NCBI GenBank assembly: GCA_044236265.1
Contig: JBIIGV010000233.1
Coordinates: 5,889 to 69,888 of the forward strand
Length of the DNA stretch: 64,000 bases
Reading direction: 5' to 3'
Source of the DNA: Oligoflexales bacterium
GTDB lineage: Bacteria > Bdellovibrionota_B > Oligoflexia > Oligoflexales > RGVZ01
Shown here: positions 14,767-63,800 of the stretch, piece after piece
Position numbering within the stretch: position 1 is the first letter of the stretch
Layout of the letters: every line of letters begins with the position of its first letter
Notes under the pieces: model-generated
Seen by the model: only the letters and a program-made list of their open reading frames with translations
What the model was told of the DNA's origin: nothing
The model's database searches: none
Translations under genes and position numbers: made by a program

Positions 14767-14780
14767 TGCGATCATTAATT

Positions 14781-14820
14781 AAAAAACGATTGGCTGTATT
14801 GATGCAGCCAATCGTTTTTT
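14781..14820. terminator. Bidirectional rho-independent terminator between convergent genes
   Basis: AAAAAACGATTGGCTG - 8-nt loop - CAGCCAATCGTTTTTT. It is a perfect 10-bp stem (14787-14796 with 14805-14814) flanked by A6 and T6, so it can serve both the 14509..14766 (+) and 14838..15890 (-) genes. Confidence 0.85.
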
Positions 14821-14837
14821 GTCTTCAAAGGAACCGA

Positions 14838-15890: not shown

Positions 15891-15917
15891 AAGAACTCCA
15901 TTTCTTGTGGTTAAGAT

Positions 15918-17039: not shown

Positions 17040-17196
17040 AATGTTGTATCTCCTTGTGAGTATGGTTGAGCTAACACGCCGGCGCAACGGCTAATTTTTG
17101 GGTCAAACCGCCATCATCAGGTTTAAAATATGAGCTTTAGCTGGCATTGCAAGAATGTTCGTCATGTTGGCTATTTTCACTGAGCGCAGGAATCAA

Positions 17197-17224
17197 TTGA
17201 TTTGCGCTTTTTGCGGGCTATACT
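17197..17224 (+). promoter_or_regulatory. Candidate sigma70 promoter placing the transcription start at or next to the ATG of the next gene
   Basis: TTGATT (17197-17202), a 16-nt spacer, then TATACT (17219-17224). The ATG at 17231 lies 6 nt after the -10 element, and no SD is present. Confidence 0.35.
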
Positions 17225-17230
17225 TTAGCT

Positions 17231-21105: not shown

Positions 21106-21217
21106 TTCGGACTTATATAGCGACATTGCGAAAGCGAGAACTCATCTGTCTATAATAGAGAGAGTTGATGGTTTTTATTTAGGTATTAAGTCGGCTTACG
21201 TCCAGAGGTAGTCATTT

Positions 21218-22372: not shown

Positions 22373-22520
22373 AATTTGGTCACTCTGAAACAAATAATGA
22401 ATTTAGCAATCATCTCAGCATAGCTTGATCGATGCGGTTAAGCTGTGCGCGTAACCTCCGATAACTACTAGGTTAAATTAAAACTGACTAGATGGTCACC
22501 TAGGGGCGGAGGATCAGCTT

Positions 22521-25712: not shown

Positions 25713-25981
25713 ATTTGGAACGATTTCCACTAACCGAAAATTCTTATTTTCTTCCGCATGGTTTGCACCGCTTTTTATTAAAATTCAGATGGGTAGATCT
25801 GGAATATTTGCAGAGCCATTATGCGCTCTAAAGTCCTATTTTGACTTTTAAAATCAGGTACTTTTGCGCTAGTGGGAAAGGCCTGCGATTCTTGATGGGC
25901 CCATATTTCCTTGTTAAAATTAAGATATCGAAATCTCTAAGAATTGCGAATTTGGTTTTGTATCTCAAACTCGAGAGTTGA

Positions 25982-27691: not shown

Positions 27692-27748
27692 TTTGGGCTG
27701 GGGGCGGACCAACTGTGATTAAGGGCGCAAGTTGGTGAAATTCATAAC

Positions 27749-27775
27749 TATAATAGGAAATGCTTAAGCATTCCT
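27749..27775 (+). promoter_or_regulatory. Consensus -10 box followed directly by a 21-bp near-perfect palindrome, upstream of the giant gene
   Basis: TATAAT at 27749-27754. The palindrome is AGGAAATGC-TTAA-GCATTCCT at 27755-27775. No good -35 element is present (TTGGTG lies only 11 nt upstream). Confidence 0.3.
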
Positions 27776-27830
27776 GTAGTTTGCCGAATCCCTCCTAGTA
27801 CGGGCGTGAGAACTAATTCGGGTAGTGCTA

Positions 27831-30800
27831 ATGTTTCTCAAACGACTGAAATTTATGGCGCAGTTCAAAGCTGGTCAAGCTTTGCTATCTATTGTCATAT
27901 TCAGTTTCCTACTCTCCTGTGAATCCAACTTTTCGGGTAAAGTCCTTAACTCCAATAGAAAAAATAATCCATTTGCTACGGCAAATCTGTTGGAGGGTCA
28001 GGTTGCGTTTAAAACAACAAAGTTGTCGACAAAAGCACGCGGAACTCGCCTTTCTGGAGAAGCCTGTACCGATCAAGCAACGGTCTACTTGACACACTTT
28101 GCCACATATCAAGACAGCTTAGTTATTGAGGTTCGCAAACGCATTCTATCGGTTAAGGCCGATAGCGATGGGCGCTTTAAATTTACGAACTTGAAAGAAC
28201 AGGGCGTAAATCTTCAGTCAAAAAATGATATTTATAAGGTGGAAGCAGAGCGTTGCAGCGACTACTACTCAAGGGTCGTGACAGGAGCGCAGGAGCAAAA
28301 CCTAAGTGCAGCTGGTACCGCATTTGACTTCACACTCGACAAAACTGTTATCAAAGCAAGTCTTGGATCAGACGACTTTTACGCCAAACTGGAGGATTTG
28401 GATAAACTGTACAGTCTTGCTGACACTCGCAACTCGGTCGAAGGTGTATTGGAAACACTTCGCACGAGTCGTGAAACACAAAAATCATATAGCAATATTT
28501 TTGGTGCTGAAGATGTCACTCTTCAGAATATCGAACCCCGAATTGTAATTGAGTCCGTACCCCTTAAAATTCCCGCAACTATTCTGACCCGTTTTGAAGT
28601 TTTAGCTGTTTACTATTCCGCCGAATTCAATGTCGATTATCGGTGGAAGTTAGACGGCGAAGTTGTCAGCACTGACCCTGGGTTTAGTTGGCGCCCGACG
28701 TCGACCCAGCTCGGTCTGCACACTATCGAGTTGAGTGTTGGGGTGCGAAGCCAGTTTAACCTGGACGCATACCTTAACTCTAAGATCATGAATTACTCGA
28801 TCAATGTTGTTGAAGCAACCTCCGATCCACGAACGCCCGTCGTGTCGAGTTTTGCTTTGGCTAACGCCGCGGCTGGTGGATTTATCAATAATGCTCATGC
28901 TTCGGACGCAGAAGCTGTCGCAAGTTTGGTTGCCACCAATTATGATCAAGCCTCATATGCAATTGTCGCCCCGAACGTCACTTGCAATGAGTCTACGTCA
29001 TTCCCGCTTGCTTCGATCCCGACTTTTGGAAGCTTTACAGTAGATGGAAGTTACAAAGTCTGTGCAAAGGTTTCGCGAAGTGATGGGGGCACTGTTTACG
29101 TAGCAACTCAAACGTTGCAACGGGATGTTGTGATACCATCCGTGAGCTTTGTCGATGTGTTGCCCAAGGCTGGATCGACGAACCCGAAGCCGACAATCAA
29201 AGGAACGGCATCCGAGGCATCTTTAGTCTCTCTGTACTACGATGCAAGTTGTTCTTCTGCGAAGTCTTCAGCAACGGCAAACACAGTTTTTGCGTCACCA
29301 GGAATGACCGTTGCATCTGATGTTAATTTAAACAATACGACGACAATCTATGCGCAGGCGGTTGATCCGGCTGGAAACCCATCGCCGTGCTCTTTGATGT
29401 TGACGTACACCCACGACGACGTAACGCCCATTGTTAAAAATATCAAAGCTAATGTGGCCGATAATGGCTACAAGGCTGGCGATGTTATCCCGATTGAAGT
29501 GGAATTCTCTGAGCCAGTAAAAGTAACTGGCGTGCCGACTTTGACTCTTGAAACAGGATCGTCTGATGTTGTGGTTAATTACACATCTGGATCTGACACC
29601 AAGTTTCTGATTTTCAACTTTACGGTCGGATCAAACCAGACAGCTGCGGACCTCGACTACATTTCAGCGACGGCTCTGTCTGCTTCCGGTGGTAGTATTC
29701 AGGATCAAGTTCAAACTGATGCAGTCCTAACATTGCCAGCCCCTGGGGCAGCTGGCAGTTTGTCGGCAAATAGTAACATTCTGATTGATACGACCATACC
29801 AGTAGTCACATATGCGTCGATCTCTCCTTCGTCCCCAGGTACAAGTCTGACACCAGCCGTATCGATGTCTCTAAGTGAAAACGCGACCGTGACCTTATAC
29901 GGTAACAGTAGCTGTTCGGATGCAATTTCATCGGCTACGGCCCTGTCGGGAACCGGTTTACAAGTTATTACGACGAATACGCTCGCAGCTAACGCTGCGA
30001 CAACGATCTTTGCCCGCGCCGTTGATGGTGTGACAAATCAGTCTGTTTGTCACAGTATGATTGTCTATACGCATGACAATATTGCGCCAACCGTCGCGTC
30101 TTTTGCGAGATCATCTGGCCAAAATTCATTCACTAATTCCGTACCAATAAATTTTGGCGTTCAATTTTCTGAAGTGATCGACCCATCAACATTCACGGCA
30201 AGTGATATTTCTAACACGGGTACTGCGACCGATATCGTTTGGACTGTTACGGACTCTGGTGATCACCGCAACTTTGTTGTAGCTGCGACGCAATCTGGAA
30301 ACGGTACATTAAAGCCATCTTTTGCAGCGACTGCGGTGAGTGATCCGGCAGGGAATGCAATTCAGTCCATTTCGACGTCATCTAATGACGTGGCATATTC
30401 TATCGCCCTATTCACTGTAACGTTGAATCAAACAGCTGGGCAGGTTGATCCTGCAAACTCGTTGCCGATATCGTTCACAGCCGTGTTCTCTGATGAGGTG
30501 GGTACAGGTCAGTTTGTCGCTCAAGATATTGTTCAGCAGGGCACTGCTTCAGGAATCACCTGGAATTTGGCAACTACGGATAATATCACATGGACGATCA
30601 CAGCGACTGCGATAACGGGTCAGGGAACCGTCGTTCCTCATATTCCTCAAGATGCAGTTTTAGACCGCTACGGAAACAAAAATGGTGCGTCAACTCACAC
30701 AGATAACTCCGTGGTTTATGACATTACGGCTCCGACGATCACATTTACAAATCTTACTCCAGCAAACCCTTCTTCGGAGCTGCGTCCAACGCTCAAAGGT

Positions 30801-33800
30801 ACGGTGTCTGAAGCGTCGATTGTAACCTTGTACTTTGATAGTAGCTGTTCGGCAGCCAAATCCGATGCTGTTGCGAACACAGTGCTGCCTATGCCTGGTC
30901 TTGCACCAAATATTGATGTAGCTGCCGATACAATGACGCCGATTTATGCGCGCGCCATCGATCCCGCAGGCAATATTTCGGTTTGTACGTTAATGGTCAA
31001 TTACAACCACGACGGCACGCCTCCGTTCGTGGTGTCAGTTGGCTCGACTAAAGCTGATGGCTTCTATAAAGCTGGCACGGTCATCCCGATCGCCGTCAAT
31101 TTCTCTGAAAATGTATTTGTGGTTGGTACTCCGCAAATAACGCTCGAAACTGGCTCTACAGATCGAGTTGTAAATTATTCAAGTGGATCAGGCACTCCGA
31201 CATTAGTCTTCAACTACACGGTTCAGGCTGGTGATACGGCAGCCGACCTTGATTATCTGGATACCTCAGCCTTCGCACTAAATGGCAGCACCATTAAAGA
31301 CTGGGTTGATAACGATGCTGTCATGACTCTTCCATCCACCGGCAGCGCGACCAGTATCGCTGGCCAAAAATCAATCGTCATCGATACAGCCGTACCCGCT
31401 GTCTCGTTCGTGTCAATCTCACCTGTATCTCCAGGAATGAGTCGAACTCCCTCGGTGACCGTCAATGTGTCAGAAAATGCGAGTGGGATCGCCTTATTCA
31501 GTAACCCAACGTGTGGATCTGCAATCTCGGCGAGCATAGCGGGATCATCCGGCAACAATACTGTGGTGACGAATACGCTGACCGCTGATGCTCTGACTCC
31601 AATTTACGCTCAAGTGACAGACCTCGCCGGTAACGTTTCCTCCTGTGCGAATATGACCGGCTACCAGCATGACGGTACGCCTGCCGTTGTCACGTCCGTG
31701 TCTTCATCTTTGGCGAACGGAACATATGGTGTCGGCCAAGTGATTCCAATCGAAGTCAGCTTCTCGGAAGTCGTTTATGTCAACGGGACACCGTTTTTGA
31801 CGCTCGAAACTGGCGCTACGGATGCCGTCGCCAACTACGCATCTGGTTCCGGTACCAACAAGCTGACTTTTAACTACACTGTCGTGGCCGGCGAAAACAC
31901 TCTTGATTTGGAACTGACGTCACTGAGTGCGATAAATCTTAATTCCGGCACAATCAAGGATCTCGCTGGCAATGACTCAACCGTGACGGTAACGCCACTG
32001 GCTGGCGGTAGTAGCTTATCTGGACAAAAGGCTATCGTCGTGGATACGACAGGGCCGACGCTAACATATGCCTCAGTCTCTCCGGTGCCTCCGGCTACTT
32101 CAAGAACACCCGCGGTGACCATGAGTCTTTCTGAGCCTGCTGCCGTGACTCTGTACAGTGACAGCGATTGTTCTGCCGCGATATCGTCGTCAGTGAGTTT
32201 TGCTGCTGGCGTAGGTCGAACAATCACGACCAACACACTGACAGCTAATGCGACGACGCCGATTTTTGCAAAAGGTATAGATGCTGTAAACAACGCATCA
32301 GCTTGTACAAGTATGATTGTGTACACGCACGATGATACGCCGCCAGTTGTGATGTCCTTTGCTCGTGCATCGAGTCAGATTGCCCAGACGAACTCTGTTC
32401 CAATTAATTTCACGCTGACATTCTCTGAGCCTATTAATCCCTCGAGTTTGACGGCGGGAGATATCTCCAATATTGGAAACGCGACAGGAGTTACATGGTC
32501 GATCTCTAATTCAGGCGACAATGCAACTTTCACGGTATCTGCAATCGCAGCAAGTAACGGAACCCTCCAGCCAAGATTGGCTGCGGCGAGCATTGCTGAT
32601 CATGCCGGCAATACAAACGTAGCCGGTGCGGACTCGCCAAACAATGTCGGTTATTTTGTAGCGGTGTTGACGGTGACGATGAATCAGGCTGCTGGACAAG
32701 GGGATCCAGTCAACGGTTTACCAATTAGTTACAACGTTGTATTCTCTGGAGCAGTAGGTGCGAATAGTTTTACGACTGGTGATATCGTTCAGAACGGCAC
32801 AGCTGGGGGAATTACTTGGACACTGTCGACCACTGACAATATTAGTTGGCTCCTACGGGCTACTGCGATAGCGACTCCGGGTACAGTCATCCCGTCGATT
32901 GCAGCAAGCTCTGTCATCGATGAATTCCAGAACCAGAATGCGGCTTCAACATCGACCGACAATACAGTCGTCTACGATATTACGCCGCCGACGTTAAGCT
33001 TTTCATCTTTGACGCCATCCAATCCTTCGCAGTCAATGACGCCGACGATTATCGGTACAGCGTCTGAGCCGTCGACGGTGACGCTATACTACGACTCCGG
33101 ATGTTCTGTCGCTAAGTCAGCCACGGTTCCGAACACCTCGTTTGCAAGTCCTGGTATCACGCCGACAGGTAATGTGGCTGCTGATACTGCCACCGTGATT
33201 TACGGTATGGCTACCGATACGGCAGGGAACATTTCTGCTTGTACGAGTCTTGTCTCTTATGTTCACGATGGTACCGGGCCAAGCGTGACGAGTGTCACGT
33301 CTACATTAGCTGACGGTCCTTATAAGGCAGGTCAAGTTGTCCCTGTCTTCGTGAACTTCAATGAAAATGTAAACCTCGCTGGTACTCTGCAATTGGCACT
33401 AGAGACTGGTGCGATTGATGCAGTTCTAAACTATGTGTCTGGAAGTGGTACGAGCTCCCTAAGATTTAACTACACAGTGGTTGCTGGAGATACCTCGCTA
33501 GATCTTGACTATGTCAGTTCAGCTTCTCTGGCTCTTTTAACAGGTACCCTTCGCGACGCTGTCGGAAACGATGCAGTCCTCACGTTACCTGCTCCTGGAG
33601 CGTCTGGAAGTATGGGTGCAAATAAAGCGCTCATCATCGACACGACGGCGCCAACGATGACTTTCTCAAATACGTTGCCGGTTTCGCCTGGTAACACTCA
33701 AACCCCACAGGTGACGTTCACTATTTCAGAGAACGTACCTACCGTAAGGCTGTTTACAGATAATGCTTGTTCGGTGGGTGCCGCTCCTGCAAGTACTGGA

Positions 33801-36800
33801 TTAATGGGCAGTAACACGGTCACGACGAGTGCGTTGCCAGCTAATACTGGTACTAGCCTATACGTGCGCTCCACAGATGCCGCAGGAAACGTGTCGAGTT
33901 GTACGCTTCTGACTACTTACACCCATGACGGCATCCCAGCGACCGTGACAAACGTATCTTCCTCATCAACGAACGGTACTTACGGGGTTGGTAATACCGT
34001 TGCGATTGTGGTGACGTTCTCTGAAATCGTAAATGTGACTGGCGCTCCTCAGTTGACCTTGGAAACAGGCGCAATCGACGGTGTCGCGAATTACGTCTCC
34101 GGCAGTGGAACAACGGCGCTAACATTTAATTATGTGGTTTCAGCTGGCGAGTCGTCCCTTGATCTGGATTATGGAAGCACGACGGCTTTGGGTTTGAATG
34201 GTGGAACCATTCGCGATCGGGCCGTGAATAACGCCGATCTGACCCTGCCTGCTGTGGGTGGTGCCAGTGCAATTGCAGCACAAAAAGGTATCATCATCGA
34301 TACGACGGCACCGACTATTACATATTCGAGCATTTCTCCTGTGCCACCATCAGCTAGCATGTCCGCTTTCGTGACCCTGCAGGTCTCAGAGGCGTCAACA
34401 GTAACTCTCTATAGTAATCCTGGGTGTTCTGCCGCTATCTCGAGCGCTAAGGCTATGATCTCTGGCGGCGATCAAATGATCTCAACTGTCAATCTTCCTA
34501 CAAACACATCGACGACCATCTATGCGCGTGCCGTAGATCCTGTTAATAACGTCTCTGAGTGCACGAACATGGTTGTCTATACGCACGATAACATTGCGCC
34601 TCAAGTAGATTCCTTTACACGGGCAGCGACTCAGGCATCATACACGAACTCCCTGCCAATGAACTTCACACTGACGTTCTCTGAGCCGATTATTCCTGAG
34701 ACACTAACTGGCAGCGATTTTGTGAATATGGGAACAGCAACCGCAGTAACCTGGGGTGTAGCTGATTCTGGTGATCACCGAACATTTACAGTTTCTGCAA
34801 CGGCTTCTGGCAATGGGACTCTGAGACCTCGTTTGGCCAGTGGCGCTATCACTGACCTTGCAGGTATTGGTAACCCGCTCAACGCAACGTCTGACAATAG
34901 TGTGAATTATTCGATTGCTGCGTTTACTGTCACCGTGAATCAGGCTCCTGGCCAGGGCGATCCGGTGAACTCGCTGCCTATTAATTTTAGAGTCGTATTC
35001 TCCGGAGCCGTTGGTTCAAATAGCTTTACCGCGTCCGATGTTGTTCAAAACGGATCGGCAGAGGGTGTGACCTGGAATCTTTCTACAACCGATAACATCA
35101 CATGGACCGTTTCGGCGACCGCTGTGAATATTCAGGGCACCGTGATTCCATTTATCTCTCCAAATACAGTTTTGGATGAATTTGGGAATAATAACGCGGC
35201 ATCAACAAGTACTGATAGCAGTGTCGTTTACGATATCGCTGCACCAGTCCTAACGTTTGCGTCGGTGACGCCGTCAAATCCTGCTGCAACGCGTACGCCG
35301 ACAGTTTTGGGGACCTCGTCTGAACCGTCAACTGTCACCCTCTACTACGATTCCGATTGTAGTACCGCCAAATCTTCGGCTGCATCTAACACAGTCTTCG
35401 CGAGTCCAGGTATCGCTCTTACCTCGAATGTTGACGCTGACGTAACGACAACAATTTATGGTCGTGCTGTTGACGTGGCAGGAAACGTTTCTATCTGTAC
35501 GAGTCTTGTCGGCTACCAGCATGATGGAACAAGTCCGACGGTAACGAACGTGACATCCACACTCGCCAACGGACCCTATAAAGCTGGCCAGCTTATTCCT
35601 ATTCAGGTCACCTTCTCGGAGCCTGTCTTTGTTACGGGCGCTATGCAGCTGACTCTGGAGACAGGATTGTCCGATGCGGTGGTGGCGTATACCGTGGGGA
35701 GTGGAACAAGTACTTTGACCTTCAACTACACCGTTGCTGCTGGTAATACGGCTGCCGATTTGGATTATGTGGGAACCTCAGCGTTGGCACTGATTTCGGG
35801 AACCATCAAAGATAGCGTCGGTAATGATGCTAATCTCGCCCTGCCAAGTCCTGGGTCGTCTGGAAGCTTGGGTGCCAATAAGAGTCTTTGGATTGACACC
35901 ACAGCGCCGGTCTTGGCATTCACCTCGATCAATCCTGTGTCTCCTGGTATCAGCCAAAATCCACAGGTCACATTCACAGTGTCTGAGTTGGTGCCGACTC
36001 TAAGGCTTTATACGGACGCGATCTGTAGTGCCGCCATTTCAGGTTGGAACACGGGTAGTGCCGGCGCGAACACGATCGCGACAAGTACATTGGCCGGCAA
36101 TGTTGCAACCAGCATCTTTGCTCAGGGAACTGACCCAGCAGGTAACACATCAAATTGTACGAGCCTGACGACTTATCTTAACGACGGCTTGGCGCCAACG
36201 GTGACAGGCGTCACGTCAACTGCGGCGGATGGAACTTACGGCGGCGGCCAAGTTGTACCAATCAAGGTTGATCTTAGCGAAGTTGTTTTTGTGACGGGAA
36301 CTCCCCAGTTGACTCTTGAAACCGGTGCCTCCGACGCGGTGGTCAACTATTCATCGGGTAGCGGAACCACGTCTTTGATCTTCAACTACACAATCGTTCC
36401 TGGTCACGACTCCGTTGACTTGAACTATGCGTCGATGTCTGCGCTTGTTGCGAATGGTGGTAGCATTAAGGACCTTGCCGGTAATGATGCTAACCTTGCA
36501 TTAGCGGCCCTTGATGCTGCGTCGAGTTTGGCGAGTCAGAAGGCTATCGTGATCGACACGACGGTCCCGGTGATGTCTTATGTTTCAATCTCTCCGGTTC
36601 CGCCGGCGCAAAGCCAGACACCAACTGTAACGTTTAGCTTGTCTGAGCCTTCAACCGTAACGCTGTACCGTGAGTCGGGATGTTCGACGGCGATTTCCAG
36701 TGCGATTCCACTAGCTGCCGGACCTGCTCAATCAATCACGACGAACACGTTGACATCAAACGCAGCGACAACGATTTTTGCCAAGGCCATTGATACGGTT

Positions 36801-39800
36801 ACCAACCCGTCGGAGTGTACCCAATTAGTTGTTTACTCTCACGACAACACATCGCCTGCGGTCTCGTCTTTTGCTCGCAATGCAACACAGCCAGCAATGA
36901 CCAACTCGTTGCCGATCAACTTTACGATCACATTCTCTGAACCAATCAATCCGTCGTCGTTCGTCTCAACTGATTTATCCAATGGCGGAACCGCGACAGG
37001 TGTTACCTGGTTTATTAATAATACCGGAGACAATCAGTCATTTACGGTTTCCGTCACAAACTCAGGAAACGGTACCATTATTCCGCGGCTTGCGAGCGGG
37101 TCAATTGCAGATATCGCCGGCAATACGAATTCAGGTATCACGTCTGCGTCGAATAGCGTCAACTATTCAGTTGCGCCATATACAGTGTCCGTTAATCAAG
37201 CGCCAACCCAGATTGATCCTGTCAATACACTTCCGGTTAACTTTAGAGTTGTTTTCTCGAGTGCAGTTGGAAATAACACATTCACGCCTGCAGACATTGT
37301 CCAAAACGGTACGGCAACAGGTATAACTTGGAGTCTTTCGACCACAGACAATATCACCTGGACGGTAGCTGCGACTGCGATTTCGGGCGGATCCGGCACT
37401 GTCATTCCGTCGATCGCTGAAAATACTGTTACTGATGAGTTTGGAAATATCAACGGTGCATCCACATCGACTGACAACACTGTTATCTACGATGTGACGC
37501 CACCAGTGGTCACTTATTCGTCCTTGGCTCCAGCCAATCCATCGTCTGAGTTGAGGCCGTCTTTCCTTGGAAGTGTGTCCGAGATATCGACGGTAACACT
37601 TTACTATGATGGATCTTGTGCAAACGCTCGCTCAGCAACGGTTCCAAATACTCAATTTGCATCGCCTGGCATCACAGTTAACTCGAATGTTACGGCGAAT
37701 AACTCGACAATAATTTATGCGAAGGCCGTTGATACAGCGAACAATGAGTCAGCCTGTACAAGTCTTGTGTCCTATTTACACGATAGTATTGGCCCGTCTG
37801 TGGTTAGTGTCAGTGCAAACATTGCTGATGGTAGCTATAAGGCAGGAATGGTCCTTCCGATCACAGTGACGTTCACTGAAAATGTGTATGTGAATGGAAC
37901 TCTGCAGATCACTCTTGAAACGGGAACCTTCGATGCGGTCGTAAACAATTCATCTGGTAGTGGCACAGATACATTAGTGTTCAACTATGTTGTTGCTCCG
38001 GGCGAGGTGACGCCTGACCTTGAATATAGCGGGTCGGCGGCGTTAGCTCTTATTTCAGGGACTATTAAAGACGCTGTTGGTAACAATGCAGTATTGACGT
38101 TGCCGGCAACGGGAGCATCCGGAAGTCTTGGCCTCAACAAGTCTATTATCATTGATACAACGGCGCCGACGCTAACGTATACAAACATTTTCCCAGCTTC
38201 ACCTGGCAACACCCAAACACCGCAAGTCTCTTTGGATTTGACTGAGCCAGTAACCGTCCTTCGACTATACAGTGATGCAAGCTGTACTGCTGCGATATCG
38301 CCTGCGTCGACAGGGACTATTGGTCCAAATACGGTCACCACAAATACCTTGACTGCGAATGCATCGACTACCATCTATGGTCAGGGAACAGATGCTGCTG
38401 GCAACGTCTCGCTTTGTACGCTTCTGACCTCTTACCAGCACGACGGTATTTCACCAACGGTAACCTCGGTTAGTTCGAGTTCAGCCAATGGTTCTTACGG
38501 TGTTGGGCAAACTGTCGCAGTGACAGTGGTGTTCTCCGAGCCAGTGCTTGTTTCCGGAACGCCACAAATTACGCTTGAGACCGGATCTAGTGATGCTGTG
38601 GTTAATATGACCACTGGCACCGGAACCAACACGCTGACCTTTAACTATACTGTTCGCGCTGGTGACACGACTGGCGACCTTGATTATCTGTCAAATGCTG
38701 CACTGGCATTGAATGGTGGAATCATTAAGGATCCCGCAGAGAATCTCGCGGTATTAGCGCTTCCAAACACAGGAGGCGCTACCAGTATTGCGGGTCAAAA
38801 GAATATCGTGATCGATACCACCGCCCCAGTCATAACTTATCAATCCGTATCCCCGTCGTCGCCAGCCATGAGCCAGACACCCACGTTGACAGTGACCATG
38901 TCTGAGACGGCCACTGTGACTTTGTACAGTAACGGTTCATGTTCATCAGCTGTTTCGACTCCGACGGTTTTAAATGGCGGCGTGGGCCGAACGATTTCTA
39001 CCAACGCCCTCCCAGCTAATACCACGACGACGCTTTACGCGAAGGCTGTCGACCCAGTTAATAACGTGTCTAGCTGTTCGGTGATGGTGGTTTACACACA
39101 CGATATCACGAGCCCAACAGTCAGTTCATTTACGAGATCGGCTGGGCAGCTTGCCTCTACAAACTCCGTGCCGGTCAATTTCACTTTGACGTTCTCAGAG
39201 CCAATTAATCCAAATAGCTTCACTGCAGCTGATATCAGTAATTTCGGTACGTCCACGGGCGTCCTCTGGACGGTCACCAATACAGGGGACAATACGTCAT
39301 TTATTGTAGCTGCCACTGTCGCCAGCAATGGAACGTTGCAGCCTCGACTGGCAAGCGGTGGAGTTACGGATGTGGCCGGCAACTCAAACTTTGGTAACGT
39401 GAACTCCAGCAATACGGTTAATTATTTTGTTGCTGCCTACACTGTAATGGTCAACCAAAATGATGGACAAGCTGAGAGTACAAATGCGCTGCCAATCAAT
39501 TTCACCGTCGTATTCTCCGGTGCTGTCGGCAATAACACCTTTGATACATCGGACATTGTGCAAAATGGTACGGCATCTGGTATCACATGGTCGCTATCAA
39601 GTAGCGATGGAATCACTTGGAATCTTTCTGCGACTTCGATTCTTGGAGACGGAACAGTTATTCCGTCAGTTGCAGCCAACACTGTTGTGGACGAATTTGG
39701 AAACAACAACGGCGCTTCAACGTCATCCGATAACTCGGTGAATTACGATGTCACCCTTCCAATCGTTGCGTTCTCGTCGGTCAGCCCATCTAATCCGGCT

Positions 39801-51800: not shown

Positions 51801-54800
51801 TGTAATGCAGCAGTATCTAGTGCTGCCGCAGGTACATCGGGTGCTAACACCATCACGACCAATAACCTGACGGCTGATAATTCGACGTTGATCTTTGCTC
51901 AGGCTACAGATGCAGCGGGTAACGCTTCGGCTTGTACATCGATGACAAGCTACACCCATGATGGCACGGCACCAACGATCACGGGCGTAAGCTCGACCTC
52001 GGCTAACGGCACCTACCGCGTCGGTCAGACCATTCCAGTAACGGTAACCTTTGCAGAAAATGTCTACGTCACTGGAACTCCATCCTTACTCATGGAAACA
52101 GGCTCCACGGATACGGCTGCAAGCTATGTCTCTGGATCTGGTACAAGCACTCTGACCTTCAACTACGTGGTGGCGTTAACTGACCAGTCATCTGATCTTG
52201 ATTATCAGAGTGCTGCAGCACTGACGGTCGCTGGCGCAACGATCCAAGATCTTGCTGGCAACAACGCGACCTTAACTTTGGCTGCACCAGGTGCAACCAA
52301 TAGTCTTGCTGATCAGAAGGCAATCGTCATCCAAACGACCAAGCCAACGATTGCTTACACATCAATTAGCCCAGCCTCACCAGGCACAAGCCGTACTCCA
52401 ACGGTCTCGATGACTCTGTCTGAGGCGGCAACGGTCACGCTGTACACCGACAACACATGCAATACAGCCAAGTCTGCAGCAACAGCATTGTCTGCGGGTG
52501 CTGGCCAGACGGTGACAAGCTACACACTGACAGCGAACGCTGCGACAGATCTCTACGCCCAGGCGGTGGGTGCATTCGGCAATACGTCACTTTGTACGAT
52601 GCTCGTCTCCTACACCCATGACAGCATTGCACCGACAGTGACGTCATTTGTCAGAGCAAGTGGTCAGGCAGCGTTTACCAACTCTGTTCCTGTGAACTTC
52701 ACTATGACCTTCAGCGAAGCCATTGATCCGGCATTGTTCACCGCAAATGATATTAGTAACTCTGGTACTGCTAATGGTGTAACCTGGACGGTCACCAACT
52801 CTGGTAATAACACGACCTTCACAATCGCAGCGACCAGCTCAGGCAATGGTACATTGATTCCTCGCCTTGGAGTGACAGGAATTGCTGACCCTGCAGGCAA
52901 TACGAACGGCAGCCCTTACGATACAACGCAAAACGTCAGTTACACGGCAGCCACATTCACAGTCACAGTCAATCAGGCGTCTGGCCAGGCAGATCCAGTG
53001 AAGACGCTGCCTGCCCAATACACCGTCGTATTCTCAAGTGCAGTTGGCAACTCAAGCTTTGATGTCATTGACGTCAGCAATAGTGGTACCGCAACCGGTG
53101 TTGTCTGGGGACTTGCGACGTCTGATAACATCACCTGGACACTGACGGCAACGTCTGCGTCTTCTGATGGAACGATCATCCCAGTTATTGCGCAGAACAC
53201 GGTTCAAGATGAGTTCGGAAACCAAAACGGCGCTGCAACAGCCACCGATCGCTCGATTACATTTGACAGCGCTGCTCCGACATTCTCCGGACCATACACT
53301 GTCAGCCCAGCCAATCCTTCGAGCAGTCTAACTCCAACCATTCGTGGTGTAACGTCAGAGGCTTCGACGGTAACGATGTACTACGATTCAGGTTGTATTA
53401 CGCCTAAGTCTGCTGGCACAGCAAACACAGCCTTTGTCACCCCAGGCATTACGGTTAACTCAAATGTTAATGCTAACGGTACAACGACGATCTACGCCAA
53501 AGCGCAGGACACAGCCGGAAACGAGTCCAGCTGTACAACGATTGTGGCTACTTATACGCACGATAGCATGGGTCCATCTGTTACAAACGTGACCTCCAGC
53601 CAATCAAATGGAAGCTACAAGGTCACAGCGGCGCAGATTATTCCAATTAGCTTGACCTTCTCAGAGGCTGTCAACGTGACGGGTACGCCGACCTTGACCC
53701 TTGAGACTGGAGCAACGGACGCTATTGCAACTTATGCAAGTGGATCCGGAACATCCACTCTGGTCTTCAACTATACGGTCTTCGCAGGCGATACAAGTAG
53801 TGACCTCGACTATGCTGGAACGGCGGCTCTGGCCCTCAGCGGTGGAACGATGACTGATGCTGTTGGTAATAATGCAACATTGACTCTTCCTGCTCCTGGT
53901 GCTGCTGGAAGTCTTGGTGCGAACAAGGCTCTGATTATCGATACGACCTTGCCGACCGTAGCGTTTACGTCGATTTCACCTGTATCTCCGGGCGCAAGCT
54001 TGTCACCACAAGTGACCATCAATAGCTCGGAAGCTGGCAGCATGGAGCTCTTCTCGACCAGCAACTGTAACTCGTCGATTTCGACTGCCATCACGGGCTC
54101 GGTTGGAGCCAACACGATTGCCACGAATAGCCTTGCACCCAATGCTTCGACCTCTATCTTTGCAAAAGTCACTGATGCTGCTGGTAATGCATCGAGCTGT
54201 ACATCGATGACCACCTATCTCCACGACGGCGTCGATCCAACCGTTACTTCAGTTAGTTCGACTGCAGCAAACGGTAGTTATGGAACCGGTCAGACCATGG
54301 CTATCACGGTTTCATTCTCTGAGGTGGTTTACGTCACGGGTACACCAAATCTGACCCTTGAGACTGGTGCAACCGATGCTGTCATCAATTATGCTTCAGG
54401 ATCTGGTACGAATACGTTGACCTTCAACTACACAGTTGCTTCAACTCATAACTCTCTAGATCTTGATTATGAGTCCACCACGGCACTTCTACTGAATGGT
54501 GGAACGATTAAGGATGTGTCTCTCAATAACGCCGTATTAACCCTGCCAACAGTTGGCGGTGTTAACAGTATTGCAGGTCAGAAGGCGATCGTTATCGACA
54601 ACGTGGTTCCGACGATCACCTACACATCGATGACTCCAGCGTCTCCTGCGATGGGTCTAACACCAACCTTGACCATGTCCTTGTCTGAGGCGGCGACGGT
54701 CACTCTCCATAGCGACCACACATGTACGGCGCCAATTTCTGTAGATACAGCGCTGTCTTCTGGTGCTGGCCAGACGATTACGACTCAGGCGTTGACAGCA

Positions 54801-57800
54801 AATGCTACAACCTCGATTTACGCTAAGGCAATTGATGTTGTGAATAATCCGTCGGTCTGTACGTCGTTAACGACCTATACTAATGACAGCCTAGCACCGA
54901 CAGTCGTCTCCTTTGCGCGTGCGGCTGGGCAGGGTAGCGTTACGAATTCCGTGCCGGTGAACTTTACCATCACCTTCTCCGAGGACATGAGCGCTGCAAG
55001 CTTTACGGGTGCTGATATTAGCAATACGGGAACGGCAACTGGTGTTACTTGGGCTGTCACTCAGGTTAGCAGCACAGTCTTCACGGTAGCTGCATCGAGT
55101 GCAAATAATGGTACTCTCATTCCACGCCTGGCAAATGCAAGTGTCACTGATGTTGTCGGCAATGCGACAACTGCACAAGCTGATGCGACCAATAGTGTGA
55201 ACTTGGTCAATGGTGGATTGACAGTGACCGTCAACCAAGCCTCGGGCCAGGCTGATCCAACCAATGGCAGCACAATCAACTACACGGTTGTCTTCTCGAG
55301 AGCAATCGACCCAACAACCTTCGCGTCAGACGACATATTCCAAAACGGCACGGCGACTGGTTTAACATGGACGATCACCACATCGGACAATATAACCTTC
55401 AATCTTGCTGCAAGCGGTATGAGTGCAACGAGTACGGTGATTCCATCGATTTCTTCGACTCGGGTCAAAGATACCTTTGGTAACGATAATGCTGCATCAA
55501 CGTCGACCGATAATACAGTCAACTACGATGTCACTGCCCCAACACTAACCTTTGCATCTATTTCACCTTCAAGTCCTGCATCCACATTAATGCCGATGGT
55601 TTCAGGTACAGCGTCGAAGCCATCGACGGTCACGCTCTATTATGATTCCGGTTGTTCGACGGCTAAGTCCTCTGCGGAGTCCAATACGGTATTTGCGTTG
55701 CCAGGTATTGCCCTGACAGCCAATGTCAGCAGTAATACAGCAACATCAATTTACGGTAAGGCTGTCGACGCATTGGGCAACGCATCAAGCTGTTCGGCAT
55801 TGACGACCTACACTCATGATGGAATCAGTCCAACAGTCACGAACGTCACAGCTGTCCACGCCGATGGCACATTCAAGGCTGGTGAGCTGATTCCAATCAA
55901 GGTTACCTTCTCTGAAGCGGTTACCGTTACTGGAACTCCGCGCTTAACCCTTGAAACAGGCTCTGTCGATGCAGTAGTGAATTATACGAGCGGTTCGGGT
56001 ACGGCTGAGCTGACCTTCAACTATACAGTCTTCGCTGGTGACACAACCTCAGACCTTGACTATATCAGCACGTCAGCTCTCGCGCTTAACGGTGGAACCA
56101 TTGTTGATCATGTGGGCAATGCGGCTAGTGTGACGTTGCCAGCCGTCGGCGGTGTCGCAAGTATTGCTGGTCAGAAGTCCCTAGTTATAGACACGACGGC
56201 GCCGACGGTGGCGTTCACGTCCATCACGCCGGTTTCACCATCTAATAATCTAACACCAGCAGTCGCTCTAACATTGTCGGAGACAGCGTCAGATGTTCGT
56301 CTCTACAGTGACTCTGGCTGTAGTAGTGCTCTCTCGAATGCAGCCAATGCAGCCGCCGGTCCATACACCATCACGACAACGACTTTGACGGCGAATCAAA
56401 CCAACAATATTTACGCTCGTACAACCGATGTGGCGGGTAACCAGTCTGCCTGTACTTTGATGACAAACTACGCACACGATGGCGTGGCGCCTACCGTGAC
56501 GTCGGTAAGCGCATCATCAGCGAACGGAACCTACCACGTTGGCCAAACCGTTGCGGTGACGGTCGCATTCAGCGAAGTCGTTACAGTCTCCGGAACGCCA
56601 CAGTTAACACTTGAAACAGGTGCAAGCGATGCGGTGATCGATTACGTATCGGGATCAGGAAGCAATACGCTCACCTTCAATTACACAGTTGCACTCAGTC
56701 ATGCGTCACCCGACCTTGATTACACATCGACCGCGTCTTTGGCGGCTAACGGAGGATCTGTTCAGGATGGATCTGGAAACAATGCGACGTTGACGTTACC
56801 TGGTGTCGGTGGGCCGAACAGTATCGCGGGCCAAAAAGCGATTGTGATCCAAACGTCAAAACCAACGATCGCGTTCACATCTATTACGCCTAGCTCACCG
56901 GGAACCAGCCAGACTCCGACTGTGACGATGTCGCTATCGGATGCATCAACGGTCACGCTTTACAGCGATGGTGGTTGCTCGACAGCGATTTCTGCTCCAA
57001 CGGCGCTATCAGCTGGAGCAGGTCAATCGGTTATTACGCAGACATTGGCTGCAAATGGTCAAACTCAGATCCACGCTCAGGCAGTGGCAGCGTTCAGCAA
57101 TACATCACTGTGTACGAGTTTGGTTAGCTACACCCATGACAACGTGGCTCCAAGTGTGACATCTTTTGCGCGCGCAGGTGGTCAGGTTGAGTTCACAAAC
57201 TCTGTTCCTGCTAACTTCAGTATTACATTCAGCGAGGCGATCAATCCTGCGTCCCTTACTGCGGCTGATATCACAAACGCTGGTACTGCTGCGGGAGTTA
57301 CCTGGACAGTCACCAACTCCGGTAATAACACGACCTTCACAGTGGCGGCCTCGACTGCAGGTAACGGCACGATTCAGCCACGCCTCGCTATTGGGGCAGT
57401 GACCGATCCAGCGGGCAATGCAAGTGGTAGCCAGGTCGATGCGTCCAACAGCGTTAGCTACACTCAAGCAACATTCACCGTCACATTGAACCAGGCTTCT
57501 GGCCAGGCAGATCCAGTTAAAACCTTGCCAGTGCTCTACACGGTTGTATTCTCTAGCCCTGTAGGTGCTTCGAGCTTTACGGATGCTGATATCCAAAATC
57601 AAGGTTCTGGTACGACGGTCACCCAGTGGCAGCTTGAAACCGCCGATAATGTCACATGGACTTTGAAAGCGATGGCTGTCACCGGCAATGGAACGATCAT
57701 GCCAGTGATCACAGCAAATAGCGTTCAGGATGCCTTCGGAAACTTAAACGGTGCGTCGACCTCTACCGATCGCACTGTGACCTACGATACGACGGCGCCG

Positions 57801-60800
57801 ACACTGACATATGTCGCATTGACTCCAGCTAACCCGTCGACGTCGCTGATGCCGACCATCTTGGGAACAGCTTCAGAGACATCGACAGTGACTCTCTATT
57901 ACGACGGAGGATGTAGCACTCCTAAGTCGGTTGCTACAGCGAATACTCAGTTTGCAACTCCAGGAATTGCCGTTACCGGTAACGTCAATAGTAACGCTTC
58001 AACCGTCATCTACGCACAGGCAGTGGACACGGCAGGAAATCTCTCAAGTTGTACAAGCCTTGTGACCTATAACCATGACGGCGTTGGTCCGACCGTAACG
58101 AATGTGACGTCTACGGCAAGCGACGGCAACTACAAGGTCACGAATGCCCAAACAATTCCAGTGACGGTGACCTTCTCAGAAGTGGTCACAGTTACAGGAA
58201 CTCCAACCCTGACTTTGGAAACAGGAGCTACTGACGCGGTCGTTAGTTACAGCACGGGTTCAGGCACGAATACACTCACATTCACTTATACGGTCTTTGC
58301 TGGTGATACGGCTGCTGATCTCGACTATGTGTCAGCCTCGTCTCTAGTATTCAATGGCGGAACTGTTAAAGACGGCGTTGGCAACAATGCGACTTTGACA
58401 TTGCCAAGTCCAGGTGCTGCCGGAAGTTTGGGCGCAAACAAAGCGATTATCATTGATACAACGGCTCCAACTATTGGCTTTGCAGTGATTTCTCCGACGT
58501 CGCCGGCGACCTCTCAGACGCCAACTGTAACAGTCACTCTCTCGGAGGGATTGTCTGCTGTACAGTTGTTCTCTGACTCAAGCTGTACAGCGTCAGCCTC
58601 CGTATCGTCAAACGGATCTGCAGGAAACAAAAATATCGTCACGACCACGCTGAATGCGAATGCGACAACATCGCTCTACGCTAAAGGGACCGACATTGCT
58701 GGAAACGTCTCTATCTGCGCAAGCTTAACAAGCTATACCCATGATAACGCTGGTCCAACAGTTGTATCTGTAACATCATCCCTGGCCAATGGTACCTACG
58801 GACTGGGTCAGGTCGTCCCAGTGGCCATCACATTCTCAGAAGTTGTGTCTGTCACTGGAACGCCAACGCTGACTCTGGAAACAGGAGCTGTTGACGGTGT
58901 TGCAAGCTATGTTTCAGGATCAGGCACCAACACCCTCAACTTTAGCTACACCGTGGGTGCTGTCGACGGGACTGCAGACTTGAACTACGCGTCTACGACG
59001 GCCTTGGCTCTTGCTGGTGGTTCAATTTTGGATGCGTCAACGAACCCAGCCGATTTGACTCTACCAGCCTTGGCAAATGCAAGTAGCTTAGGCGGTCAAA
59101 AGGCTATTGTTCTTGATCTCACAGCTCCTACAATCACCTACGCTAGCATTGCGCCGACATCTCCGGGCACAACTGCAACACCGACAATCACGATGACTTT
59201 ATCCGAAGCAGCAACTGTGACTCTCTACAGTAACTCAGGGTGTTCGGCTTCTATTTCTGATGCGAAGGCACTTGTCAGTGGTGTGGGTCAGACCATCACT
59301 ACGAATGCTCTGACCGCAAATACGGAAATTTCCATCTATGCTAAAGGAATTGACACCGTTAATAACGCTTCAGGTTGCGCGTCTCTGACCACTTATACCT
59401 ATGATAGTGTGGCTCCTGCGGTTAGCTCCTTCGCAGTCGCTGGTGGTCAGGTAGCGGTAACGAACTCGGTGCCGATCAACTTCACATTGACCTTCTCTGA
59501 GGCCATTAACCCTTCCAGCTTTACGGCAGCAGACATTTCGAACGCTGGCACCGCAACGGGTGTTGATTGGTCGGTGACGAACTCTGGTGATAATACATCC
59601 TTTACAGTTTCGGCGACGTTGGCTGGTAATGGAACCATTCAGCCACGACTTGCAACCGCAAGTGTTGCCGATCCTGCAGGAAACCTTAATGCTGCAGTCA
59701 GCACTGCCACCGGCAGTGTCAGCTACTCTCAAGCAGCATTCACGGTTGCAATTAACCAGGCCTCAGGTCAGTCCGATCCAGTTCGTACAGGTCCGATCAC
59801 CTTTACAGCAGTCTTCTCGTCTGCCGTTGGTTCCTCAACATTTAGTGCGGGCGATGTAGCTCAGTCGGGTACGGCAGCTAATGTGACATTTGCTGTAACG
59901 AGCCTGGATGACATCACATGGACAATTACCGCTAGTGGCATGAGTGGTTCCGGTACGGTTGTTCCGACCATCGCTTCGAACCGAGTCAAAGACCTCTTCG
60001 GAAATGACAACGCTGCGTCCACCTCAACAGATAACACTGTCAGTTACGATGTTACGACGCCGACCCTTACATTCGCGTCTGTCGGTAGTGGAAACCCAGG
60101 CTCAAGCTTGACCCCAACCATTCTTGGTACAGTGTCGAAGGCGTCCACAGTCACCTTGTACTTCGACTCTGGCTGTTCAACTGCTAAATCAGCGCCTACA
60201 GCTAACACAGCATTCGCAAGCCCAGGTATTACGCTAACCGGAAACGTTAACGCTAACACCTCAACGACCATCTATGGCAAAGCTGTTGACTCCCTCGGTA
60301 ACGAAACCTGCTCACTCTTGACGACCTATAATCATGACGGTGCTGGTCCAAGTGTTGTGAGTGTTGCCGTGAACAAGGCTAATGGCAGCTATAAGACTGG
60401 GGAAGTGATTCCTGTGCAGATCACGTTCTCTGAGGCAGTCACGGTCACCGGAGCGCCACAAATTACCCTTGAAACCGGAGCAACCGATGCGGTCGTGGAT
60501 TATACATCCGCGGCAAGTAGTACAGTCTTGAATTTCAACTACACAGTCTCTCCAGGGGACACCACAGCAGATCTTGATTACGCCTCAACCACAGCGTTGG
60601 CGTTGAATTCTGGCACGATCCGCGATGCGGTTGGAAATAACGCGACCTTGACCCTTCCAGCTGTCGGTGGCGCAGCCAGCATTGGCGGAAATTATGCAAT
60701 TGTCATTGATACAACAGCACCGTCTGTGACCTATAACTCGATCACCCCTGCGTCTCCTGCAAGTAATCTCAATCCGCAAGTTGCTCTGACCCTTTCAGAG

Positions 60801-63800
60801 GCGGTTGCAAACGTTCAGCTTTACTCAAACTCTGGCTGTAGTGCTGCGGTGTCAACGGCTACGGCCGGAACTGCTGGCGCTAATACGATTACAACGTCCG
60901 CACTCAGTGCGAATACGACGACGAACCTATTTGCTCAAGCAAGCGATGCCGCTGGTAACCAATCGGCATGTACCTCGATGACAGCCTATCTTCATGACGG
61001 AGTGGCTCCTACGGTGCAATCTGTAACTGCTACGGCAGCCAACGGCACATACCGCGTCGGTCAGACGATTCCAGTCACGGTTACTTTCAGTGAGGCTGTG
61101 ACGGTCAGTGGAACTCCACAGTTGACCCTTGAAACAGGAGCGACCGATGCAGTCGTGAACTATGCTTCAGGATCTGGCACGGCCACTCTGACCTTCAACT
61201 ATGTTGTTGGTCTCAATGATAGTTCAGCAGATCTTGATTACACGTCGACGGCAGCTCTTGCTCTTAATAGCGGCACAATCGCCGACGCTGCTGCTAACAA
61301 TGCCACATTGACTCTGCCAACTGTTGGCGGCGCTGGAAGCTTGGGAGCTAATAAAGCACTTGTCATTCAGACCACTCCTCCAACGGTCACCTACAACTCG
61401 ATCTCTCCAAGTTCGCCAAACAGTAGTCAGACACCAACAGTAACCATGACTCTATCTGATGCGGCTACCGTGACTCTCTATAGCAATGGCGGATGTTCGA
61501 CGGCGATTTCGGCTGGCGCTGCTCTCTCTGCAGGATCTGGCCAAACAGTGACGACCTATACTTTGAGTCCAAACGTTACGACTCAGATTTTCGCCCAAGC
61601 GGTCGCCGCCTTCGGCAATACCTCTAGCTGTACAAGCCTCGTGTCCTACACCCATGATAATGTTGCGCCAACAGTGTCGAGCTTTGTCAGAGCGACGTCG
61701 CCTGTTCAGGCACAGTTTACAAACTCGGTACCCGTTAACTTCAAGATCACCTTTAGCGAGGCGATTAACTCAGGAAGCTTTACGGCATCGGATATTATCA
61801 ATACGGGAACTGCATCCGGCGTAACCTGGACGGTTTCAAATAGCGGAGACAATATTAACTTTACAGTTGCGGCGTCGGCTTCTGGAAACGGAACCTTGAT
61901 TCCTCGACTGGCGGCGAATGCTGTCACGGATTCTGCAGGTAATAATAACGGTAGCCAGTACGATGCGACCGAGTCCGTAAGTTACACAGCAGCTCTATAC
62001 ACTGTGACTGTAAACCAGGCGTCGGGTCAGGCTGATCCAGTCAATAGCTTGCCAGTGAACTATACTGTCGTCTTCTCAAGTGCAGTAGGTAGCAGCTCGT
62101 TTGCTGTCGGCGATGTAACCAACATTGGATCGGCCTCCGGTGTGACATGGACGCTAACAGACAGTGGCGACGGCATCACCTGGAACCTGTCTGCGACGGC
62201 AACGGGTGCTGGAACTATTATTCCATCGATAGCAGCCAACACAGTTAAAGATGCATTCGGCAACGACAATGCCGCAGCCACAACAACGGATCGCACGGTC
62301 ACTTACGACAATGTTGTCCCGACATTCTCTTCGATCTCGGTCAGCCCAGCAGCAACATCGTCTAGCTTGACACCGACGATCCTCGGTACCGTCTCTGAAT
62401 CCTCGACGGTGACGTTATACTTCGATTCCGGCTGTACAACGCCGAAATCAGCAGCTGCAGCCAATACAGTCCTTGCCTCCCCCGGTGTCCAAGTTACGTC
62501 GAACGTTAACAGCAACACGACGACCACGATTTACGGTAAAGCGATTGATGCGGCTGGCAACGCATCTGCTTGTGCGACACTGGCGACCTATACTCACGAT
62601 GGTGTTGGGCCAACAGTCACCAATGTTTCTTCGACGGCGGCTGATGGCACCTATAAAGTCACAGCTGCTCAGACGATTCCAGTCACGATTACCTTCTCTG
62701 AGAATGTTGTTGTAACCGGAACCCCAACCATCACACTTGAGACTGGCTCTACGGACGCTGTGGTCAGCTTTAGCAGTGCATCTGGCAACACGATGACCTT
62801 CACGTACACGGTCTTCGCGGGTGATACGGCTACAGATCTTGATTACGTCGGTACCGGATCGCTTGTTTTGGCTGGCGGTACGATTAAAGACACTTACGGT
62901 AACAACGCAACTCTGACATTGCCAAGTCCGGGTGCTGCTAGCAGCCTCGCTGCGAACAAGGCCATCGTTATTGACACGGCGGCTCCAATGATTAGCTATA
63001 CATCTATTGCTCCAGTTTCGCCAGGTAGCTCTCTAACTCCACAAATCAGCATCAGCCTTTCAGAGGCTGTCTCGAGTGTCCAGCTCTTCTCTGATGGAAG
63101 CTGCTCAAGTTCTGCGTCAAGTGCATCCACGGGTTCTGCGGGTGCTAAGACGATTACCACAAGTGCACTGACCGCCAATGCGACCACGGCACTCTACGCT
63201 CAGGCAACGGACATTGTTGGAAACATCTCGAGCTGTTCGCTTATGACAAGTTATCGTCACGATGGTGCTGCGCCGACCGTATTGTCGGTCAGCTCGTCTT
63301 TGGCAAATGGTACTTACGGTTTGGGACAGGTGATCCCGGTTACCGTAACCTTCTCTGAGGTCGTCACCGTCACTGGTACTCCACAACTGACCCTTGAAAC
63401 TGGCGCAACTGATGCAGTCGTTAATTATGTGTCTGGTTCTGGCACGGCGGCTCTGACCTTCAACTACACGGTAGCAGTAGGTCATGGGTCAAGTGACCTC
63501 GATTACACAACCAATACCGCGCTTGCATTCAATGGCAGTACGATTGTAGATGGATCCGGAAATGCCGCGGTCCTGACGCTACCGGCCCCTGGTACTGGAT
63601 CAAGTTTAGCGGGTCAAAAAGCAATTGTGATCGACCTGGTCGCTCCAACGATTGCTTACAGCTCGATATCTCCTGCATCACCAGGCATGTCGCAGACGCC
63701 AACACTCACCATAACCTTGAGTGAGGCAGCAACGGTGACGCTCTACAGCAACAACTCATGTACAGCATCGATCTCGGCAGCGACGTCGCTCGCGAGTGGC

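Follow-up and report, generated by a model that had tools for sequence, protein, structure and literature searches.

How does a bacterial gene come to be built of a repeat whose unit is not one domain but an ordered series of seven, and what might hold such a series in order over tens of kilobases? The locus that raises this question lies in a stretch of 64,000 nucleotides (nt; here called the window) from an uncultured freshwater member of the Oligoflexales, phylum Bdellovibrionota (assembly GCA_044236265.1, contig JBIIGV010000233.1, positions 5,889 to 69,888 of the forward strand), and consists of the 5' part of a single giant gene. Its product can be read as having three levels of order: four types of module (A, B, C and D), a heptad of these modules in the sequence A-B-A-B-A-C-D and, distally, two variants of the heptad that alternate. 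Giant surface proteins composed of immunoglobulin-like (Ig-like) repeats are a known class; the titin-like, three-level super-repeat organization is new for bacteria in the literature searched, an incomplete body in which nothing relevant turned up on "super-repeat" adhesins of bacteria or on giant proteins of Oligoflexales.

The gene occupies the plus strand, where a reading frame open from nt 27810 extends through 12,063 codons without a stop until the window ends. An alignment of units, split at recurrent D-x-x-x-P junctions, was used to build one position-specific hidden Markov model (HMM) per module position, and the frame read with these models gives [A B A C D], followed by 14 x [A B A B A C D] and a fifteenth unit cut by the window end (Table 1). 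An earlier inspection of the letters by eye (the original prediction) had listed 15 junction coordinates, with the spacings between them, and had claimed the heptad order for every unit. All 15 junctions lie in frame, each on the Y/F of (Y/F)D-x-x-x-P; the spacings are reproduced exactly, as units of 752, 752, 753, 752, 751, 751, 751, 751, 750, 752, 754, 753, 754 and 753 amino acids (aa); and the order is read in all 14 units. The array extent that it proposed, nt 30717-62303, does contain 14 heptads, but the true start is at 29121 and the array has not ended at 62303. The 14 units align (MAFFT) in 761 nearly gap-free columns, with module lengths of 98 (A1), 96 (A2), 96 (A3), 124 (B1), 124 (B2), 107-111 (C) and 105-106 aa (D). 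Autocorrelation of the protein, a check that had been suggested, confirms the unit period with a peak of 0.251 at lag 751, accompanied by one of 0.22 at lag 220, over a background of 0.090 +/- 0.004 (z about 40 and 33). Within the heptad, two modules of one type are never neighbours and B always stands between A modules. The window holds at least 109 Ig-like beta-sandwiches, and the longest contig of the same species about 175.

The relationships among modules are those of a super-repeat. A fixed multi-domain order recurs in 14 copies and a partial fifteenth, the same order is found in four related contigs (L010, L011, L013 and L014), and same-position modules are closer across units (50-63% identity) than are the modules within one unit. 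Between positions, A1, A2 and A3 share 41-47%, B1 and B2 56%, and C and D 37%; adjacent types share about 31-37%, the 31% or so seen between unrelated module types being the floor of this measure. Cross-position identity is equal within and between units (for A1-A2, 41.2% vs 41.3%), which argues that the heptad predates its amplification and that modules within a unit have not been homogenized. Residues conserved in a position-specific manner number six in A1, two in A2 and one in A3, with none separating B1 from B2. The closest A pair is A2-A3, which would fit, weakly, the origin of the heptad from a pentad via duplication of a B-A pair; such a pentad, A-B-A-C-D, opens the array here and likewise comes first in L014 and in the homologous fragments P0010, P0020, P0040 and P0041. 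Unit length is equally constant beyond the window, all 34 complete heptads (window, L010, L013 and L014) measuring 750-756 aa, with one unit of 769 aa in L011. The original prediction proposed a constraint on length and order. Both are indeed held, but a constraint on super-repeat length is inseparable from the ordinary conservation of length in each beta-sandwich.

A tree of the units had been suggested as a way of seeing whether neighbours are most similar. They are not; an extra two-unit period is found instead. U6, U8, U10, U12 and U14 make up one clade (bootstrap 100%), U5, U7, U9, U11 and U13 group weakly (about 52%), and the proximal units U1-U4 form a clade of their own (92%). The distal zone is five copies of a two-heptad block of 14 modules (about 1,503 aa), and the autocorrelation accordingly peaks again at 1502 and 1506 aa. 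The alternation recurs in related contigs: in L010, u4/u6 are 66% and u5/u7 70% identical (one-based numbering; L010_3/L010_5 and L010_4/L010_6 when zero-based), and in L013 copies of one heptad type are 75-80% and of the other 67-78% identical. A joint tree groups the window's proximal units with those of L014 (81%) but clusters same-type units by lineage, which argues that two-heptad blocks were amplified separately in different lineages. The array is old but not static, block amplification having continued in separate lineages, and the comparison of units suggests that it was more recent in the L013 lineage than in the species of the window.

The age of the array is evident from the divergence among its units. 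In pairwise comparisons of the 14 units, DNA identity is 55-64% and protein identity 52-67%; the match of two-thirds to three-quarters of nucleotides estimated by eye was too high, and the near-identical DNA copies that the original prediction had named as grounds for rejecting great age were looked for and are not present. Third codon positions are 30-40% identical, against a random expectation of 26%. By the Nei-Gojobori method, the proportion of synonymous differences (pS) is 0.71-0.82, at or past saturation, and that of nonsynonymous differences (pN) 0.23-0.34; at identical amino-acid sites the same codon is used in 37.4% of cases, vs the 33.8% that codon usage by itself would give. Exact DNA repeats in the 35-kb array reach 26 nt at most, only 19 20-mers occur more than once, and Tandem Repeats Finder, applied to 27.8-64 kb, reported just an 18-nt repeat, so that the array is invisible to DNA repeat finders. 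Units of such low identity probably no longer support unequal homologous recombination; loss of its substrate would keep the number and order of units stable, and would leave the array resolvable by short-read assemblers.

Orthologous units in related contigs provide an independent view of this history. They are 86-91% identical in amino acids, vs 53-60% for paralogues, and the ratio of nonsynonymous to synonymous substitutions (dN/dS) between them is about 0.04-0.07 (L013_6/L010_0: dN 0.075, dS 1.94; L014_4/L013_5: dN 0.055, dS 0.79). The pairs L013_6/L010_0 (89%) and L013_7/L010_1 (86%) are orthologous and follow one another identically in both contigs, which argues that individual units keep their identity between species. 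Saturated pS, codon choice near chance and low dN/dS between orthologues together uphold the proposal of an old array rather than one arising by recent slippage or assembly duplication. Units 0-5 of L014 have no one-to-one orthology with units 0-5 of the window (all 49-58%), and that lineage appears either too distant from the array of the window or not collinear with it; no L010 unit has an orthologue in the window above 61%, and the L010 stretch probably lies beyond unit 15. Eight consecutive heptads are present in L010 and nine in L013, and L014 has the pentad and then heptads.

Independent assemblies (Logan, JGI and ENA) are collinear with the window and 98.5-99.4% identical to it. The contig of one strain, L009, is collinear over 21.7 kb, including 4.4 units, without an indel, and its giant gene differs from that of the window by 191 synonymous and 44 nonsynonymous codon differences (2.6% apart in the array). 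In the same comparison, divergence is about 2.3-2.6% from the gene for a 423-aa product on through the giant gene (window 24441-37691), and each gene in 17231-24457 has 0-5 differing codons; this jump suggests a recombination boundary, and a surface-protein locus with a history of its own. In another genome (L003; GCA_964402975.1, CAYOEM010000001.1), positions 9640-12337 hold a 778-aa "gene" that adjoins a run of N and consists of one circularly permuted heptad (B2 A3 C D A1 B1 A2). This has the look of a giant gene of which collapse or scaffolding has left one unit, and such genes would then be under-counted in metagenome-assembled genomes (MAGs).

Table 1. Coordinates of the giant gene and its parts in the window
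Feature	Position (nt)	Strand	Details and basis
Giant gene, 5' part	27855..63998	+	Open from 27810, continues past window end
Signal peptide with lipobox (MAQFKAGQALLSIVIFSFLLS-C)	27855..27920	+	Cys at 27918-27920; read from sequence
Non-repeat N-terminal region, about 400 aa	27921..29120	+	PKD_3 match below threshold only
Unit 0, five modules (A-B-A-C-D), 532 aa, without one B-A pair	29121..30716	+	Module HMMs
Heptads U1-U4, proximal zone	30717..39743	+	Clade, 92% bootstrap
Heptad U1	30717..32972	+	A1 30717-31010, B1 31011-31382, A2 31383-31670, B2 31671-32042, A3 32043-32330, C 32331-32657, D 32658-32972; module HMMs
Heptads U5-U14, zone of two alternating heptad types	39744..62303	+	Tree, autocorrelation
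Heptad U15, cut by window end (A1 B1 A2 B2 A3 and 27 aa of C)	62304..63998	+	Module HMMs

Candidate starts of the gene are GTG 27825, ATG 27831 and ATG 27855. The last is the likely one, and gene callers on other assemblies choose the GTG. On contigs of the same species they report products of at least 7,282 aa and, on the JGI contig Ga0480364_0000004, past whose end the gene continues, at least 19,351 aa; these sizes are lower bounds, all contigs seen ending within the gene. Translated from ATG 27855 the protein begins MAQFKAGQALLSIVIFSFLLSC, in which the n-region is short and basic and is followed by a hydrophobic core and by LLS/C, which resembles a lipobox. Judged by eye, this is the pattern of a bacterial lipoprotein, MAQFK-ALLSIVIFSFLLS-C (signal peptide, lipobox and Cys), and the N-terminal Cys is predicted to be lipidated; in P0010, P0020, P0040, P0041 and P0050, homologous fragments, an N-terminal hydrophobic segment is likewise followed by Cys. 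Some 437 aa of the open frame precede the first module according to the module HMMs. The N-terminal 400 aa gave an unusable AlphaFold model when submitted without an alignment (predicted local distance difference test, pLDDT, 34), and a scan of GTDB genomes found no relative of this region. Antisense ORFs (open reading frames) of 150-199 aa on the minus strand, at 31874-32326, 50226-50825 and 57105-57602 inside the giant gene, are most likely spurious products of biased composition.

Structural modelling places the modules among Ig-like folds. The AlphaFold2 model of unit U10 (27-row alignment) has seven all-beta domains, each a beta-sandwich, with a mean pLDDT of 90, and Foldseek matches it in the PDB to strings of Ig-like domains (a carcinoembryonic antigen (CEA) model, titin I65-I70, GhpA of Aureispira and mastigonemes); a sequence search of the PDB with one unit gave no match. 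The Pfam family Big_5 (PF13205) matches module C in two of three units scanned (29.5 and 50.6 bits, cut-off 23.6), with no match in U8, and Big_12 falls below its cut-off on module B (22.5 vs 27 bits). Cysteines are distributed with great regularity, exactly two in each of the 47 A modules and zero in B, C and D modules; this pattern and the acidic composition of the array (isoelectric point 4.05), in which Thr, Ser and Ala abound, both indicate a protein located outside the cytoplasm. Across 28000-64000, G+C rises from about 0.47 to 0.50-0.53 and GC skew is negative, the upstream 27 kb having positive skew; this shift probably reflects the Thr/Ser/Ala-rich codon content of the gene, not replication.

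The distal end of such a protein can be seen in a sister species (L012), whose flanks are 93.5% identical to the window up to nt 25786. Its contig holds the 3' end of a giant gene, coding for at least 10,267 aa and finishing ...A-B-A-B-B-C, then 13 RCC1 repeats (Pfam E = 5e-123), enough for two propellers, and an Ig-like domain. Within this C-terminus, Pfam detected RCC1 families only, with no RTX nonapeptide repeats or type I secretion system (T1SS) signal and no sorting domain of the type IX secretion system (T9SS), the organism belonging to Bdellovibrionota and not Bacteroidota. The gene adjoins the same neighbours as that of the window but is inverted, facing the 423/435-aa gene from the opposite strand. 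When positions 14570-21155 of this contig are set against the window from 25786 onward, synteny stops just past the 423/435-aa gene, and the gene for a 569-aa product is not at that spot. Either the whole block with the giant gene has been inverted, or that assembly contains a misjoin.

The individual modules are widely distributed. A query of a single heptad matched 1,467 proteins at E <= 1e-10, and most of the 120 listed are pure B-B-B arrays from many phyla, in which neighbouring B modules are 47-93% identical (median 69%). A C-D profile run against 1.84 billion representative proteins gave 6,068 matches, the best 150 being all D-only or C-only arrays; this ranking, by summed score, favours long homo-arrays and is no measure of heptad rarity. 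The ordered heptad was found, among the matches listed, only in 17 short metagenome fragments and the Oligoflexales loci, and in GTDB genomes a 4-row C-D alignment located two related loci, both in Oligoflexales MAGs of the Bdellovibrionota. The contrast drawn by the original prediction with arrays of one module also holds, B, C and D occurring elsewhere as B-B-B, C-C-C and D-D-D arrays. A lipobox-bearing protein from ENA (P0050, 1,059 aa) is a simple alternating array, B-A-B-A-B-A or (B-A)n, and may be similar to what gave rise to the 220-aa A+B sub-period, a possible starting point of the heptad. Neighbouring homologous domains have been proposed to stay divergent to avoid misfolding (PMC4660218), and the unlike neighbours within the heptad fit this idea; the homo-arrays found elsewhere show that dissimilar neighbours are not obligatory for these folds.

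Super-repeats are best known from giant proteins of muscle. Nebulin is composed of 7-module super-repeats. In the A-band of titin the D-zone is organized as 6 x [Ig-Fn-Fn-Ig-Fn-Fn-Fn] and the C-zone as 11 units of 11 domains (PMC10665226). The likeness to the Oligoflexales array extends to an ordered beta-sandwich unit in tandem, also of seven domains, to the closest relationship being between same-position domains, and to zones of differing organization. On the other hand, the domains are unrelated in sequence, the protein described here is bacterial and is predicted to be extracytoplasmic and lipid-anchored, and its position-specific conservation is weak; the resemblance is one of architecture only and implies no family membership.

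Among bacterial proteins, the grappling-hook protein GhpA of Aureispira and SprB (Bacteroidota; about 5,900-6,500 aa) are close in general form, as giant outer-surface fibres with tens of Ig-like repeats and a distal binding structure, from aquatic bacteria whose way of life depends on cell contact; the GhpA fragments 9fly and 9flu are among the Foldseek matches. GhpA differs in that its 52 repeats are "slightly varying" versions of a single kind, that a T9SS sorting domain lies at its C-terminus and that it forms heptamers, in contrast to the four module types in a heptad, the N-terminal lipobox, the RCC1 C-terminus of the sister species and the lack of a visible T9SS signal here. RTX-type adhesins (MpIBP, LapA, SiiE and BapA) have BIg extenders of one module, often in near-identical copies, and leave the cell by T1SS with C-terminal RTX repeats. 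The tandem Ig-like extender is common to both, as the U10 model and its structural matches indicate, and a very long one places a ligand-binding region far from the cell; but the sister-species C-terminus has no RTX repeats, and the 27 kb that precede the giant gene gave no Pfam match to T1SS genes (ABC transporter, membrane fusion protein or TolC). Clear homologues of the 124-aa B module occur in SwmB-like or "beta strand repeat-containing" proteins (E = 0 to 1e-130, 39-50% identity), in which it forms B-B-B homo-arrays, unlike the B modules here, always flanked by A. A repeating unit of more than one module type is also described for Embp/Ebh of staphylococci, a giant surface protein with F and FG repeats (PMC7587433); its modules are alpha-helical bundles, its anchor is of the Gram-positive wall type, and it has two modules per unit, not seven.

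Taken together, and with the balance tilting modestly in its favour, we consider the region to be the shaft of a giant surface fibre of more than 19,000 aa, probably held by a lipidated N-terminal Cys and acting as a putative tether or adhesin. In such a fibre the lipid anchor would hold the protein at the membrane, about 175 or more beta-sandwiches, those of type A carrying one conserved Cys pair, would form a shaft estimated at roughly 0.7 um when extended (about 4 nm each), and the RCC1 double propeller would serve as a distal binding head, giving a long-reach tether or adhesin. From the patterns of identity, a plausible history would begin with an A-B-A-C-D unit, surviving as unit 0, that gained a B-A pair; the resulting heptad would have multiplied as one piece, the individual lineages would later each have multiplied two-heptad blocks on their own, and the units would then have diverged individually under strong purifying selection. 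Surface location and adhesive function are putative, and several considerations weigh against them. A lipoprotein exceeding 2 MDa has no recognized route to the surface of the cell, and the protein may be periplasmic; adhesion is argued by analogy only; the RCC1 head is taken from a relative whose locus is inverted with respect to its flanks, orthology to the gene in the window being likely; and no secretion or anchoring system was recognized nearby, the four genes immediately upstream having no Pfam or NCBIfam match.

Other explanations of the array deserve consideration. The heptad (about 30 nm) and double heptad might be functional periods of a ruler or of in-register assembly, retained because the molecule lines up with a periodic partner, with lateral contacts that differ for each of the seven (or fourteen) positions; the partner could be other copies of the protein in a multi-stranded fibre or a periodic envelope structure. 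The order that never varies and the 750-756 aa maintained in 34 units from four contigs would follow naturally from this, as would two heptad types recognizable across lineages; precedents exist in titin, where a 7-domain unit is likewise repeated six times in the D-zone and the 11-domain unit corresponds to the 43 nm repeat of myosin (PMC10665226), and in the stem of GhpA, made of seven parallel strands of Ig-like repeats (bioRxiv 10.1101/2024.01.29.577165). Yet residues specific to position are scarce (six, two and one in A1-A3, none between B1 and B2), a constant unit length follows simply from the constant length of each domain, unit number differs between lineages, and no periodic partner is known, so that we regard a ruler as unlikely. 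We view with similar doubt a coat, sheath or motility protein of the SwmB kind, in which repeats provide bulk and length and the heptad is a historical accident. The same weak position-specific conservation would suit a role in structure only, and relatives of the B module are named "SwmB domain-containing protein", "S-layer family protein" or "TIGR02059 family" in their sources; but NCBIfam, including its TIGR models, gave no match at E <= 0.01 to the units, the N-terminus or the four upstream genes, and a single N-terminal lipid anchor with a distal propeller head is more tether-like than lattice-like.

That the array is instead the result of recent expansion or an artefact of assembly (slippage, a collapsed or duplicated repeat, a chimeric contig) has next to no probability left. 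Other assemblies do break or collapse here, as in the single permuted unit beside a run of N and the many contigs that end inside the gene. The low DNA identity between units, the saturation of their synonymous sites and the indel-free collinearity of three independent assemblies refute such an origin, and the frame stays open for 36 kb.

The usual description of a giant surface protein of bacteria is of a single module in many copies, often so recent that assemblies collapse; the present gene shows that a bacterial gene can keep a titin-like hierarchy of module, heptad, double heptad and zones long enough to saturate synonymous sites. It offers a natural test case for array growth by multi-domain blocks rather than single domains, for why neighbouring domains stay dissimilar (PMC4660218), and for whether low DNA identity stabilizes long arrays. 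Were the ruler to prove correct, this would be the first prokaryotic analogue of the super-repeat principle of titin and nebulin. To the little-known biology of the Oligoflexia it adds a protein of more than 19,000 aa that is a candidate long-reach tether.

The genes upstream of the giant gene include four, in window positions 22521-27691, that are candidate export or anchoring partners of its product. Two, of 341 and 304 aa, have lipobox-like N-termini and look like lipoproteins. The other two have signal peptides and an aromatic last residue (423 aa, ending ...NVKF; 569 aa, ending ...GLVW and with a Pro-rich linker) and look, from these features, like outer-membrane beta-barrels. Farther upstream (17231-21105), the gene for a 505-aa GIY-YIG nuclease-domain protein overlaps by 49 nt the start of that for an 801-aa DinG-type helicase, in which DEAD_2, Helicase_C_2 and a weak N-terminal PD-(D/E)XK match are found. 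A cluster at 3424-8882 encodes a uridine kinase (PRK family, minus strand), an aldehyde dehydrogenase, a GTP_CH_N and GTP-cyclohydrolase-II-like protein, a DUF1688 protein and a uracil phosphoribosyltransferase, a set that presumably resembles the yeast URC pathway of uracil catabolism (URC1, URC4, URC6 and URK1).

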